Assembly (NCBI RefSeq): GCF_003334305.1
Contig: NZ_QOWS01000004.1
Reading direction: 5' to 3' (one strand)
From: Escherichia coli
Lineage (GTDB): Bacteria > Pseudomonadota > Gammaproteobacteria > Enterobacterales > Enterobacteriaceae
Length of the DNA stretch: 64,000 nt
In this document: positions 1 through 26,935 of the stretch, piece by piece
How the letters are laid out: each line of letters opens with the position of its first letter
How positions within the stretch are numbered: the stretch's first letter is position 1
Made by a program: the position numbers and the translations under genes
The notes under the pieces: generated by a model
Database searches by the model: none
The model's input: the letters and a program-made list of their open reading frames with translations, nothing else
What the model was told of the DNA's origin: nothing

Positions 1-657
1 GAGCAGACCATCACAGACCGGTTTATCCCCGCTGGCGCGGGGAACACGCAGACTATAACGAGGGTCGCACGCGGATCATCGGTTTATCCCCGCTGGCGCG
101 GGGAACACTACCAAACCGGAATCTTTCCATATAACGGCGGCGGTTTATCCCCGCTGGCGCGGGGAACACTTACTCGCCGGGGAATACGCCCCGCGCCACG
201 CCGGTTTATCCCCGCTGGCGCGGGGAACACCTTACTCATTCAGAACGCTGCATGAAATATGCCGGTTTATCCCCGCTGGCGCGGGGAACACACCCTCCAG
301 ATCTCGGGTGTCGGTAATGAAAACGGTTTATCCCCGCTGGCGCGGGGAACACGAGCGCGTGCCGTGCCTGGGTTCATATGATGGCGGTTTATCCCCGCTG
401 GCGCGGGGAACACGTGGTTGTTTAGGCGGGATTTGTTGCGTAAGTCGGTTTATCCCCGCTGGCGCGGGGAACACCCATTTCATCATGAACGGCGGAAATA
501 TCGTGGCGGTTTATCCCCGCTGGCGCGGGGAACACTCGTTTCAGTTCAGTTAGATTTATATCCAGCGCGGTTTATCCCCGCTGGCGCGGGGAACACGCTG
601 GCCGTCGTTTTTACTCAGTAACCGCCAACGGTTTATCCCCGCTGGCGCGGGGAACAC
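1..657 (-). CRISPR. Type I-E CRISPR array, truncated by the window edge; 11 repeats and 10 complete 32-nt spacers
   Basis: 29-nt repeat CGGTTTATCCCCGCTGGCGCGGGGAACAC (plus-strand reading) at 19,80,141,202,263,324,385,446,507,568,629 with a constant 61-nt period; leader and cas2 lie at the 3' side on plus, so the array is transcribed on the minus strand. Confidence 0.97.
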
Positions 658-753
658 ACTAAGCATACATAACTGTTTTTAAACAAATTTATTCCGCATC
701 AACAATCTACCAACTAAATTAAAACATTTCCTTATTTTTAAAGAACGGATAAC
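658..753 (-). promoter_or_regulatory. CRISPR leader (AT-rich) between the last repeat and the cas2 stop
   Basis: AT-rich 96 nt immediately after the leader-proximal repeat; contains ACAATCTACCAACT, a motif shared with the leader of the second array. Confidence 0.8.
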
Positions 754-1047
754 TTATTGATTATCAACAGGAAGAAAAGAAACCAAACGTAACCCATCCA
801 AATCCACCGGAATACGTCTGTTTTCTCCCCAGGTCTGAAATTCAAAACCCGACTCGGTATTGGTCGCCCAGGCCATCACCACATTTCCGCAACCAGCCAG
901 TTGGGTAATTTGCTGCCAGATCATCTCCCGAATACGTTTTGATGTATCACCAACATACACACCGGCACGCACTTCCAGTAGCCAGATTGCGAGCCGTCCA
1001 CGTAAGCGCGGCGGGACATTTTCTGTAACAACCACGACCATGCTCAT
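754..1047 (-). CDS. cas2: Cas2 adaptation endoribonuclease (type I-E)
   Basis: 97-aa [37 protein letters not shown]...; ATGA overlap with the cas1 stop; adjacent to leader. Confidence 0.95.
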
Positions 1048-1967
1048 CAGCCGCGTCCTCGATGACCGCTATCGCCCAACGTTTCAGGTTCGGGGATGGC
1101 TGGCGGTAACATATCCGGCGCAGGTTGTGGCGGTTCAATTTCACCTGCGGCAAGGACTTCCTCAATTAACGGTATTAATTTGCCCGTTAACTTAGTGCTA
1201 CGGAAAATATCGCGACAGGCTAATCTGACTTCTTTATCAGGTTCTGCGGGTTGCCTCGCTGCTATTTCAAATGCCTTTGGCACAACCGAATCAAATTTAA
1301 TGATATCGGCTATGTCATAAACAAATGAAAGCGGTTTGCCACTATGGATAAACCCAATAGCGGGCGCATATCCCGCGGCTAATACTGCCGCTTCAGATAT
1401 ACCGTACAGACATGATGTAGCAGCACTGATGCAGCGATTCACAACATCGCCTTTTTCCCAGTCTTTAGGATCGTATTTGCGACCATTCCATTTCACACCA
1501 TATTGTTTCGCCAGTAATGCATACGTCTGGCGAACGCGAGATCCCTCAATTCCACGTAGCTGCTCCACTGAACGGCGAGCTGGCGGTGGCTCACGAAAAC
1601 GTAATTCATACATTTTGCGCACCACCTTCAGGCGTAGATCTTCCGTTAAAGCCAGCTTTGCCTGGTAGAGTAACTTATCAGCACGCGCCCCACCGGGTTG
1701 TCCGGAAGAGTAGACGCGAACACCCGCTTCACCGACCCAGACCAGTAGCGTCCCCACCGTGGCGGCCAGATGCACCGCCGCGTGGGAAACTCTCGTTCCC
1801 GGTTCGAGCATAATGCAGGCGACCGATCCCACCGGAATGTGCGTGCGGATCCCGGTTTTGTTGATCAGCACGAAAGCACCGTCCAGTACGTCGATTTGAC
1901 CGTACTGGAGGAAGATCATGGAGGTGCGATCTTTTAACGGGATCGGACTCAGTGGTACAAACGTCAC
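1047..1967 (-). CDS. cas1: Cas1 integrase (type I-E)
   Basis: 306-aa ORF; N-terminal [17 protein letters not shown] and overall close resemblance to E. coli YgbT as recalled. Confidence 0.95.
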
Positions 1968-2614
1968 GCCTCTGCTCCGGGTTTGATCAGCATCAGACCA
2001 CAGCCGAACGCCCGGCTTTTGCCATACCCCTGACTGAGACGTTGCAGAAATAACCCGGGATCGGTGACCGTAAGCATCCCCGTATAATCCACGCTACTGA
2101 ACTGGATCAGTTGCCGGGTGTTTTCCCGCCGGGGTTGTTGTTGTCGGTAGGCATCAACCGAGGTATCCAGTAGTGTAAAACCACTTCTTTCCCCCTGCGC
2201 TGCCAGCCAGTCCAGCGCCGCCTGTTGTTGATGCAACCAGATATCACGCCCTTCCGCCTGCCCCTTCACCTGCCGTTTCGCCTCCATCAGCAGATCGTGG
2301 CGCTTGCCCGCTTTACAGATTGTTGGATTCGCCCGCAGGTTGAAACAAAGAGATTGTCCGGTACGCAGCTCGGACACAAATGGTCGGCATTCGATGGTGA
2401 AAGTTTCACTTTCCGCCGGGCGTGCCTGCGAGAGGACAAAAAAGCGAAACGCGCCCTGGAGTTCTTCCCGACGATAAAGAAATTGCCTTTCTTTGCCGCC
2501 AGGGAAGAGATCCCACAGCCACTGATGCATCACATATTCACCGCGATCCACCAGATGCAGCAACTGCGCAGGCGAAAGCTGGCCGGTATGTAAGGTTATT
2601 CTTGAGAGGTACAT
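1964..2614 (-). CDS. casE: Cas6e (CasE/Cse3) pre-crRNA endoribonuclease
   Basis: Start chosen at internal ATG giving MYLSRITLHTG... (216 aa) with AAGGAGG Shine-Dalgarno just upstream; conserved FNLRANP and GCGLM motifs; the annotated ORF extension to 2752 overlaps cas5 and is rejected. Confidence 0.85.
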   Translation of the reverse strand: MYLSRITLHTGQLSPAQLLHLVDRGEYVMHQWLWDLFPGGKERQFLYRREELQGAFRFFVLSQARPAESETFTIECRPFVSELRTGQSLCFNLRANPTICKAGKRHDLLMEAKRQVKGQAEGRDIWLHQQQAALDWLAAQGERSGFTLLDTSVDAYRQQQPRRENTRQLIQFSSVDYTGMLTVTDPGLFLQRLSQGYGKSRAFGCGLMLIKPGAEA

Positions 2615-3342
2615 GGTTCCTCCTTGCTGAGCCACGGCCCCTGATTGACGGTGCGTTCCCCAAACAGCCACTGCTGACGATTTAAAGGAACATCCCGGCG
2701 GCGTAATATTTTGCTCGCGACCAGGCCGTCGTGTTTCCCTTCCCACCAGCATTCATCCTGAAGTTTTGGGAGTGAGACTTTCAGTTTATGGAAATGATCC
2801 TGATACTGTTGGTATGCATTACATAAGGCATCACACGCGTTGCCTTCGAGCAGTAACGGCGCAAGAGGTAATGCCAGCGGATGACTTTTTCGCCCCAGAT
2901 AAAGCGGAAAAACTGGATGGCGTAAACCGTCCTGCAACTGTTCGAGGCTGTAAGGCGCATCGGCTGTTGTTGCCACCGCCACCATCCACCAGGCATCGGT
3001 GTAGTAGTCGCGCCGGGAGATAATCGCGCTCAAAAGCTCAGGGTCGCTCAACTCTTCGCGACGGCTGAAATAACGTGCTTTACGCACCTCTTTTGGCATC
3101 TGGACCGTGTGATAATCCCGTGCCCAGCGCGGGTTACGGCTGGCGCAAACCACCAGTGAATAGTGGCGATTAAACGCGTTTAAGCGTTCGGTATCATCAC
3201 GCCGAATCCCTACCCCGGCAGCCAGTAGCCCCAGCAATGCTGAGCGCGAAGGAAGTTCATGGGTATGACGAACTTCACCTGGAGCATCGCCCCCCCAGGA
3301 CGCCATCGGCCCATGAAGCTGAAAAATCAGATATTGGCTCAT
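2596..3342 (-). CDS. casD: Cas5e (CasD) Cascade subunit
   Basis: 248-aa ORF MSQYLIFQLHGPMASWG...; position between cas7 and cas6e. Confidence 0.9.
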   Translation of the reverse strand: MSQYLIFQLHGPMASWGGDAPGEVRHTHELPSRSALLGLLAAGVGIRRDDTERLNAFNRHYSLVVCASRNPRWARDYHTVQMPKEVRKARYFSRREELSDPELLSAIISRRDYYTDAWWMVAVATTADAPYSLEQLQDGLRHPVFPLYLGRKSHPLALPLAPLLLEGNACDALCNAYQQYQDHFHKLKVSLPKLQDECWWEGKHDGLVASKILRRRDVPLNRQQWLFGERTVNQGPWLSKEEPCTSQE

Positions 3343-3352
3343 AAGCCGCCCC

Positions 3353-25719: not shown

Positions 25720-25727
25720 GTGAGGAA

Positions 25728-25751
25728 GGCCGGGCGGGAAACTGCCCGGCC
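25728..25751 (+). terminator. GC-rich hairpin directly after the ygcE stop (possible terminator, no T-tract)
   Basis: GGCCGGGC-GGGAAACT-GCCCGGCC. Confidence 0.35.
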
Positions 25752-25765
25752 TGAACATACCTGAA

Positions 25766-25903
25766 TGGTTATCCCCGCTGACGCGGGGAACATAAGTTCG
25801 ACAACTTAAAAAATGATAACAAGTCCGGTTTATCCCCGCTGATGCAGGGAACATAATAAAAACTTTAACTAGTTCGGTTTATCCCTGTTTTTACAAGGAA
25901 TAT
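25766..25903 (-). CRISPR. Degenerate CRISPR remnant (three decayed I-E repeats)
   Basis: TGGTTATCCCCGCTGACGCGGGGAACAT, CGGTTTATCCCCGCTGATGCAGGGAACAT, CGGTTTATCCCTGTTTTTACAAGGAATAT; first interval 32 nt, second 20 nt. Confidence 0.8.
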
Positions 25904-26357
25904 TAACTACACTCGATGTCTTTAGAATAAAAGACAATACGAATCGCACTTTATCAATTTTCACTTAAAGTATGAACTGGATATCTTTATTCATAAGAAC
26001 TATTCATCAACAGCGTATAGAGGCGGTTATGTAAAACCACTCATTAGCCTCAAAACAAAGACAAACTTCCAGATTTATTACTTAACCAATGAATAACAAG
26101 CTTAAAAAATATACTGTTATTCTAAAGAAAAAATTAACAGGCATTAATTCAATATTAAAAAAATAATAGATTAAAATTTCTTAACGATTTAAGAATCATA
26201 CAAATAACACTTTGATTAAATTTAATTTTTTGTATCGATAATTGTGAACCTCTCTGGCATGGAGAACTATTTTGAACATGAGGTGTTACGTGGATATGTT
26301 GCTTATTACAAGTACTGCTAATATAAAAACTTGAGAAAGAGATAACGGGTTATATGG

Positions 26358-26935
26358 TGGTTTATCCCCGCTGGCGCGGGGAGCTCAACATCGGAAACGG
26401 CTTCGCGGCGGCGGCGTCCGGTTTATCCCCGCTGGCGCGGGGAGCTCTACGTGAAGAATATTTGCAACACCCGCAAGAACGGTTTATCCCCGCTGGCGCG
26501 GGGAGCTCGGCATAGCCAGGCTGATCCGGCGACGGCCTTACGGTTTATCCCCGCTGGCGCGGGGAACACTGTTCGGCGGGGCGGTAGTACCACTGTTTTT
26601 TCGGTTTATCCCCGCTGGCGCGGGGAACACATCAACATGCAGCGCGAACGGCTGCCCCTCGCCGGTTTATCCCCGCTGGCGCGGGGAACACTCTTATTCA
26701 GTCCCCTTTTCCATCTGCTGTGGCGGTTTATCCCCGCTGGCGCGGGGAACACGTAAATTGCGACGTCCTGCGCCAGTAATTCAACGGTTTATCCCCGCTG
26801 GCGCGGGGAACACGATGCGGCAGCGGCGGCGGGAAGTTATCGCGGCGGTTTATCCCCGCTGGCGCGGGGAACACCTTTCAATATAGTCAGAAAAGTCTTT
26901 TGGCAACGGTTTATCCCCGCTGGCGCGGGGAACAC
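26358..26935 (-). CRISPR. Type I-E CRISPR array 2: 10 repeats, 9 spacers of 32 nt
   Basis: Repeats at 26358,26419,26480,26541,26602,26663,26724,26785,26846,26907; the three leader-distal repeats end GAGCTC rather than GAACAC; leader at the 3' side on plus, so minus-strand transcription. Confidence 0.97.

Follow-up and report, generated by a model that had tools for sequence, protein, structure and literature searches.

The window examined here is a 64,000-nucleotide stretch of the Escherichia coli genome (NCBI RefSeq assembly GCF_003334305.1, contig NZ_QOWS01000004.1) that carries two CRISPR arrays, called CRISPR1 and CRISPR2, and a type I-E cas operon. These are very probably ordinary type I-E arrays that record encounters with temperate phages, have no target on their own chromosome and may owe part of their content to a history of priming. 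A preliminary description, made from the DNA letters alone, had left the targets of nineteen complete spacers open and expected them to reveal past encounters with phages or plasmids. Ten of the nineteen indeed match temperate phages, including a phage-plasmid, with eight secure assignments and two imperfect ones (48–79 and 475–506); for the other nine no target was found, and to that extent the earlier statement stands.

Temperate phages matched by ten of the spacers

Six spacers converge with perfect matches on one P2-family phage, among them the four most recent CRISPR2 spacers and the most recent one of CRISPR1, and five of their six protospacer-adjacent motifs (PAMs) are AAG or ATG (Table 1; spacers of CRISPR1 and CRISPR2 are labelled A1 and A2, respectively). 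The elements found in E. coli strains N1420, 99RCEF and 40EC are P2-family prophages with a P2-type capsid, gpO, gpM, terminase, portal, ogr, gpA replication endonuclease and integrase, and they also bear imperfect matches to A2_06, A2_07 and A2_08. Among E. coli genomes, the perfect match of A2_09 lies in a hypothetical open reading frame (ORF) of strain N1420, and the protospacer of A1_10 is found in a small "ParE-like" ORF between the genes of an exonuclease and a Dam methylase. Two metagenomic viral contigs of IMG/VR, 32.5 and 32.9 kb in length and collinear with the E. coli prophages at 87–98% identity, each unite five of the protospacers at 32/32: A1_06, A2_06, A2_09 and A2_07 are present on both, joined by A1_10 on contig 3300028969_000137 and by A2_08 on contig 3300011584_000016. 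Neither contig contains CRISPR repeats. The prophage matches emerged after widely shared old spacers had been left out of the searches of E. coli genomes, and the prophage loci were then fetched and scanned with all spacers; IMG/VR was scanned with N at every sixth spacer position. The nearest deposited phages (SEN4/5, 186, PSP3 and SW3/5) align with no more than 12% of the target region, at only 66–69% identity, and it is because of this distance that the curated phage collection was silent on the P2-family spacers.

A slot for variable cargo separates ogr from the replication gene gpA in the P2-family phage. It is filled, in N1420 (coordinates 18842–20164 of the fetched locus) and both IMG/VR contigs, by an ORF of 440 amino acids (PHROG 34659), for which PADLOC and PHROG searches gave no function and only a weak LmuB-like PADLOC match (E = 5e-4), and in 99RCEF (fetched-locus coordinates 21305–22590) it holds a HEPN-domain protein and SfsB. 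The cargo ORF is targeted by two spacers, A2_06 and A2_09.

The curated collections were searched with 22 spacers, i.e., the nineteen, the spacer of a degenerate mini-array beside CRISPR2 and the two oldest spacers of CRISPR1, of which one is present in the window as a tail (1–18) and the other lies outside it. Joined by runs of N, these were compared with 50,697 phage and 72,556 plasmid records (E ≤ 10), and A1_01 was the only spacer with a credible target. Besides the P1-like phage D6, it matches around 100 non-mobilisable plasmids of ca. 90 kb, that is, phage-plasmids, again at 29/32, and all its mismatches are synonymous changes at third-codon positions. In structures of Cascade, the bases at positions 6, 18 and 30 of the CRISPR RNA (crRNA), where these mismatches fall, are flipped out and take no part in pairing with the target. 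The A1_01 crRNA could still pair with the commonest darB variant at all 27 pairing positions, and, as only third-codon positions vary, mismatches would fall on precisely these three places by chance in about 8% of cases (10/120). When IMG/VR was scanned with degenerate codons, 27 darB loci were recovered that vary only at third-codon positions, with no exact A1_01 donor among them. The PAM at this site is ATT in 19 loci (counting D6 and one plasmid) and ATA in 10, both of which have been reported as PAMs of spacer-dependent interference or priming (PMC4678831). As the third synonymous isoleucine codon at this site would yield the consensus ATG, the donor of A1_01 was probably an unsampled relative.

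Two further spacers, A1_05 and A1_09, lead to a second type of prophage typified by that of E. coli STEC384, and the perfect match of A1_09 is also present in the prophage of strain STEC379. Their sites lie 0.9 kb apart on the same strand, with that of A1_09 on the PAM-proximal side of that of A1_05. Like the P2-family phage, this prophage is only distantly related to deposited phages. A1_08 also weakly matches the integrases of Salmonella phages SW9/SI22 and of a Klebsiella record, and its origin from the integrase of a P2-family prophage other than the main target is rated as no more than probable, the match being near noise level.

Other short matches in the curated collections (to Pasteurella phages, phage Mangalitsa and a faecal "Bacteriophage sp.") were at noise level (E 0.3–4), and three "plasmid" matches proved to be mis-filed chromosomes bearing the same arrays. 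We likewise set aside matches in strains ECO2947 (A1_03, in a "hypothetical protein"), EC11, 2014C-4423 and WS1933D that did not look like CRISPR but belong to the strains' own CRISPR loci; for ECO2947 the locus was fetched, and EC11 was judged by coordinates next to the cas match of that strain. The IMG/VR scans left A1_07, A1_04 and A1_03 without any match and A1_08 without an exact donor, and neither A1_07 nor A1_04 had a match in 100,044 species-representative genomes or JGI metagenomes. The eight oldest spacers are common to 770 of 5,426 E. coli genomes, some with one or two point mutations; all 60 sampled matches were CRISPR loci, with rare prophage matches possible in the other 710 genomes.

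Table 1. Arrays, leaders, cas operon and spacers, in window coordinates
Feature	Coordinates	Strand	Remarks
CRISPR1 array (iap side)	1..657	-	11 repeats, 10 complete 32-nt spacers, partial spacer 1-18
CRISPR1 leader, AT-rich	658..753	-	from the newest repeat to the cas2 stop codon
Type I-E cas operon	754..9312	-	cas2e, cas1e, cas6e, cas5e, cas7e, casB, casA, cas3; RefSeq annotation of the identical record
Degenerate two-repeat mini-array	25765..25854	-	one 32-nt spacer, 25794-25825
CRISPR2 array (ygcE-queE intergenic)	26358..26935	-	10 repeats, 9 spacers of 32 nt
AT-rich intergenic region containing the CRISPR2 leader	26936..27274	-	reaches queE
A1_01	48..79	-	29/32 to darB-like helicase gene of P1-like phage D6; mismatches at crRNA positions 6, 18, 30
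A1_05	292..323	-	30/32 (mismatches 2, 5), PAM AGG; small terminase gene, prophage of E. coli STEC384
A1_06	353..384	-	32/32, PAM ACG; portal gene of P2-family phage, seen in 7 genomes of E. coli and on both IMG/VR contigs
A1_08	475..506	-	28/32 (mismatches 1, 2, 23, 32), PAM ACG; integrase, P2-family prophage of S19-651 (probable only)
A1_09	536..567	-	32/32, PAM ATG; small ORF adjoining the small terminase gene, STEC384-type prophage
A1_10, newest of CRISPR1	597..628	-	32/32, PAM ATG; early region of P2-family phage
A2_06	26692..26723	-	32/32, PAM AAG; cargo ORF of P2-family phage
A2_07	26753..26784	-	32/32, PAM ATG; gpA of P2-family phage
A2_08	26814..26845	-	32/32, PAM ATG; tail gene of P2-family phage
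A2_09, newest of CRISPR2	26875..26906	-	32/32, PAM ATG; cargo ORF
Spacers without target	1-18 (partial), one outside the window, 109-140, 170-201, 231-262, 414-445, 26387-26662 (five), 25794-25825		

Adjacent motifs and the orientation of protospacers

Taken as the three nucleotides that directly precede the protospacer on its 5' side, in crRNA sense, the PAM is ATG at five, AAG at one and ACG at one of the seven perfect protospacers, and the AWG motif anticipated in the preliminary description is thus found at six of seven. Against a background of 2.4–2.8% for AAG and ATG together, at least six of seven would arise by chance with a binomial probability of ca. 6e-9, an enrichment that confirms both the polarity of the arrays and the authenticity of the matches. 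The excess of ATG would fit an ATG preference of this cas variant. Cas1 of the window is 84.5% identical to the crystallised Cas1 of E. coli K-12 (match to the solved structure with E = 9e-175), which marks the operon as a non-K-12 variant, and Cas1-Cas2 of the O157:H7 type, ca. 85% identical to their K-12 counterparts, have been reported to prefer ATG PAMs (PMC4678831).

The distribution of the six protospacers along the P2-family phage is reminiscent of primed adaptation, for which the type I-E rule expects AAG upstream of the priming protospacer to lie in the non-target strand and AAG downstream of it to lie in the target strand (PMC9699676). ACG, the PAM of A1_06, is enriched among naively acquired spacers and has been described as a priming PAM (PMC4678831). 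On the phage map, the protospacers of A2_06, A2_09, A2_07 and A1_10 follow at +1.3, +2.4, +4.8 and +7.0 kb on the PAM-proximal side of A1_06 and on the same strand, and that of A2_08 lies 7.6 kb from A1_06 on the PAM-distal side and on the opposite strand. The orientation agrees with the priming rule in five of five cases on the P2-like phage and in the one case on the second phage (older A1_05, newer A1_09), in a small sample and with a primer chosen post hoc. Judged from these positions and strands, primed adaptation from A1_06 is perhaps slightly favored as their cause, and it seems an evenly poised question whether the arrays keep a natural type I-E priming footprint in which the ACG-PAM spacer at 353–384, itself naively acquired, would have set off a burst of uptake from the same phage into both arrays, with consensus PAMs throughout and in the orientation that translocation of Cas3 would produce. 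If so, an ATG-preferring type I-E variant would have been fully active, in interference as well as in priming, against a P2-like temperate phage in a wild ancestor of this lineage, and the footprint would be relevant to the long-standing question of whether CRISPR-Cas of E. coli is ever functional under natural conditions. The phenomenon as such is not new, and what is mildly notable here is a natural priming-like footprint that is internally consistent and extends to both arrays. With six spacers on one P2-family phage, the locus offers a usable natural test case for the activity of the ATG-preferring variant.

Self-matches, lineage and structure of the arrays

The whole window is identical to positions 3718858–3782857 of the chromosome of E. 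coli strain A7 (NZ_CP028767.1; 0 differences, 100% identity), which was isolated from orangutan faeces; by megablast, the flanking DNA matched 2,733 of 5,426 complete E. coli genomes, with A7 at 100%. The preliminary description had not excluded self-targeting and proposed to compare the spacers with phage, plasmid and host sequences by BLAST, and these searches gave one target in the curated collections and no self-match in the host. No other match to any spacer was present within the window with up to nine substitutions (i.e., down to 23/32), and exactly two places on the A7 chromosome, both of them array regions, matched in the BLAST search of complete E. coli genomes. This search had limits of E ≤ 1 for 22 spacers, E ≤ 2 for 18 and E ≤ 5 for 10, which correspond to roughly at least 29/32 identity or 23–25 contiguous bases, and at that sensitivity chromosomal self-targeting is excluded on sequence grounds.

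The expectation that the spacers would place the strain was borne out, as deletion variants of the arrays also occur in a limited number of other E. coli (strains 41, A28, A35, TUM1887, H15, NCTC9088, DETEC-E601, FCI51, WL164, TUM12355 and others). CRISPR1 of strains 41, A28 and TUM1887 keeps subsets of the twelve A7 spacers, their order unchanged and the newest one in common, and the relatives are without one to three internal spacers that A7 retains. CRISPR2 of A28 and DETEC-E601 holds seven and five extra spacers, respectively, between A2_05 and A2_06 (26662/26692 junction) and shares with A7 the four P2-derived spacers at its end; by this comparison, it is A7 that has lost the additional spacers. 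None of the seven extra spacers of A28 and DETEC-E601 matched any fetched phage locus. The leader-end spacers shared among these relatives indicate that the phage-derived spacers were gained in a common ancestor and that only deletions have occurred since.

A regular-expression scan located the 29-nt repeat CGGTTTATCCCCGCTGGCGCGGGGAACAC in 11 exact copies at 19 + 61i (19–657) and the CRISPR2 repeats in 10 copies at 26358 + 61i (26358–26935), in agreement with the ten complete spacers at 48–628 and nine at 26387–26906, all of 32 nt, that had been described before. The total of nineteen holds with its counts and coordinates, but it had overlooked the partial spacer at the window start and the mini-array, which adds a 20th complete spacer. 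All 21 repeats are in perfect 61-nt register, which is not a chance arrangement; 18 of them are identical, and every spacer of both arrays measures exactly 32 nt. The window begins inside CRISPR1, whose two oldest units are thereby cut off, and bases 1–18 are the tail of a further spacer; the full CRISPR1 of the identical A7 record comprises 12 spacers and 13 repeats.

The three oldest CRISPR2 repeats (leader-distal and leftmost, 26358–26508) end in GAGCTC, with GGGGAGCTC in place of GGGGAACAC, and the terminal repeat starts with T instead of C; from their position at the trailer end, these variants are interpreted as repeat decay. The leader-proximal repeats are perfectly conserved. AT-rich leaders to the right of the arrays and degenerate repeats to their left identify the minus strand as the crRNA strand, and it is by this reading that A1_10 and A2_09 are the newest spacers. 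On the minus strand, the repeat GTGTTCCCCGCGCCAGCGGGGATAAACCG is predicted to form a hairpin (7-bp stem, 4-nt loop; -15.2 kcal/mol, z = -3.2). The repeat of the window begins with GTG, and the repeat of K-12 begins with GAG. Tandem Repeats Finder missed both arrays and reported only a 15-nt repeat at 44334–44363, and the repeats had no Rfam match at the gathering threshold.

The mini-array sits ca. 500 bp leader-distal of CRISPR2 and consists of two repeats (25765–25793 with five mismatches and 25826–25854 with four) around an AT-rich spacer that is identical in A28 and DETEC-E601. This spacer appears to be widely common among E. coli genomes and probably accounts for most of the ca. 3,600 single perfect matches obtained among them.

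According to the RefSeq annotation, all eight cas genes are intact and uninterrupted and carry no pseudogene flags. The assignment to type I-E is based on 29-nt repeats with 32-nt spacers, eight adjacent cas genes, the AWG PAM and an AT-rich leader. The A7 annotation runs from iap through a CRISPR of 13 repeats, cas2e, cas1e, cas6e, cas5e, cas7e, casB, casA and cas3 to hok and cysHIJ and, farther along, to ygcE, a CRISPR and queE, a gene order that is standard for type I-E loci of E. coli. The array is already annotated in RefSeq and is a known feature; the present analysis settles its annotation as normal arrays with phage-derived spacers and no autoimmunity.

As to neighboring loci, a hok/sok toxin-antitoxin locus occupies window positions 9507–9801 (minus strand) between cas3 and cysH, with the Hok/Gef coding sequence at 9507–9659 and the sok antitoxin RNA at 9644–9801 (Rfam RF01794, 113 bits). 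A mazEF toxin-antitoxin pair (33284–33867) adjoins relA and mazG and is standard content of the E. coli core genome, as is the remainder of the region from 27 to 64 kb with eno, pyrG, barA, gud and the fuc operon.

Competing readings and relation to known systems

By analogy to the established biochemistry of type I-E systems, the arrays would be transcribed from their leaders on the minus strand, and Cas6e would cut at the repeat hairpin to release 61-nt crRNAs. Each crRNA would guide Cascade to a matching 32-nt protospacer beside a 5'-AWG PAM, and Cas3 would then degrade the target DNA. Six spacers derive from a P2-like phage family of ca. 32.5 kb and two from the second prophage type; a phage-plasmid of the P1/D6 kind accounts for one more, and the integrase of another P2-family element probably for the tenth. 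In the ancestor of the lineage, the spacer at 353–384 with its weak ACG PAM may have primed the uptake by both arrays of the remaining spacers from this phage; the arrays would since have changed by internal deletions only.

Several observations weigh against this account. Its priming component builds on six of six orientations (P ca. 0.016–0.03) with a primer picked once the results were known, and "proximal" and "distal" are less distinct on a phage genome that circularises. No strain of the lineage has gained spacers since the common ancestor, no sign of present expression or activity was seen, and type I-E systems of E. coli are generally regarded as repressed in the laboratory (PMC10910852). 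The searches assigned no target to 9 of the 19 spacers (12 of the 22 examined). A1_08 (28/32, E ca. 0.07–0.2) and A1_01 (29/32) are without an exact donor, and their PAMs in sampled relatives are non-consensus. Finally, the collection contained no A7 plasmid record, and the exclusion of self-targets covers the chromosome.

The P2-derived spacers might instead stem from several independent events of naive adaptation, in repeated contact with a common temperate phage or from a once-resident prophage since lost, with no priming at all, an explanation that we regard as plausible though the less probable one. With six spacers the geometry cannot be tested strongly, those of CRISPR1 are interleaved with A1_05, A1_09 and the unassigned A1_07 in a way that suggests events spread over time, and they could be leftovers of conflict with formerly resident prophages (PMC10910852). 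Independent uptake is harder to reconcile with the priming orientation of all five other protospacers relative to the sole spacer of the P2 set with a non-consensus PAM, with the uninterrupted block that the four newest CRISPR2 spacers form from one phage and with the same geometry in the pair from the second phage. It is also conceivable, if rather unlikely, that the arrays are inert relics of a silenced system whose spacers are neutral lineage markers with no present role in defense. Relatives that show deletions and no new spacer, the presence of the eight oldest spacers, some point-mutated, in so many genomes and the repression in the laboratory mentioned above would all suit such a state, but the eight cas genes are intact and the leader-adjacent repeats perfectly conserved. 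In addition, the listed spacer-bearing genomes match at two array places only and show no matching prophage, a weak argument given that the chance overlap to be expected is tiny.

That the database matches are chance similarities or other CRISPR arrays instead of true protospacers is highly improbable and, for the eight secure spacers, refuted. A1_08 and A1_01 do come near noise in a search of 28 Gb (E 0.07–1), and two "hypothetical protein" matches as well as two unannotated ones proved to be CRISPR loci. By contrast, seven spacers match at 32/32 inside phage protein-coding genes with no repeats nearby, up to five of them on one 32-kb contig, and the PAM enrichment also speaks against chance; even for A1_01, the mismatches are all synonymous in a gene family that varies at those very sites. 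We retain the reading of ordinary type I-E arrays that record temperate-phage encounters, with priming as an inferred part.

The arrays share with the type I-E system of E. coli K-12 their chromosomal positions, the gene order cas3-casABCDE-cas1-cas2, the 29-nt length of the repeat, spacers of 32 nt and a leader that lies toward cas2, and differ from it in the cas genes of the non-K-12 variant. The closest published parallel is the work of Dion et al. (PMC10910852), which used the repeat of the present arrays and found that bacterial genomes and metagenomes raise the share of assigned spacers to about 60%, that the targets are practically all temperate phages or prophages and that self-targeting of resident prophages is rare. 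Our results fit this picture of E. coli spacers that mostly target prophages: curated phages gave almost nothing, with P1-like phages as the main known match, bacterial genomes and metagenomic viral contigs lifted the assigned share to about half, and the targets are all temperate, including a portal gene, with no resident prophage among them. E. coli spacers would look "orphan" only because their temperate targets exist mainly as prophages and metagenomic contigs and not as deposited phage genomes. Different from that study, we analysed both arrays of a single strain, and six spacers converge on one P2-family phage in a priming-like arrangement, whereas the words "priming" and "primed" occur 0 times in PMC10910852.

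The parallel to type I-E primed adaptation (PMC9699676, PMC4678831 and PMC6568314) lies in PAM-proximal protospacers on the non-target strand and a PAM-distal one on the target strand, and in a candidate primer with a weak PAM (ACG) next to gained spacers with consensus PAMs. Unlike in those studies, priming would here be deduced from six data points in an array that arose naturally; spacer gain is divided between the two arrays, spacers of different phage origin stand in between, and the preferred PAM is ATG instead of AAG.

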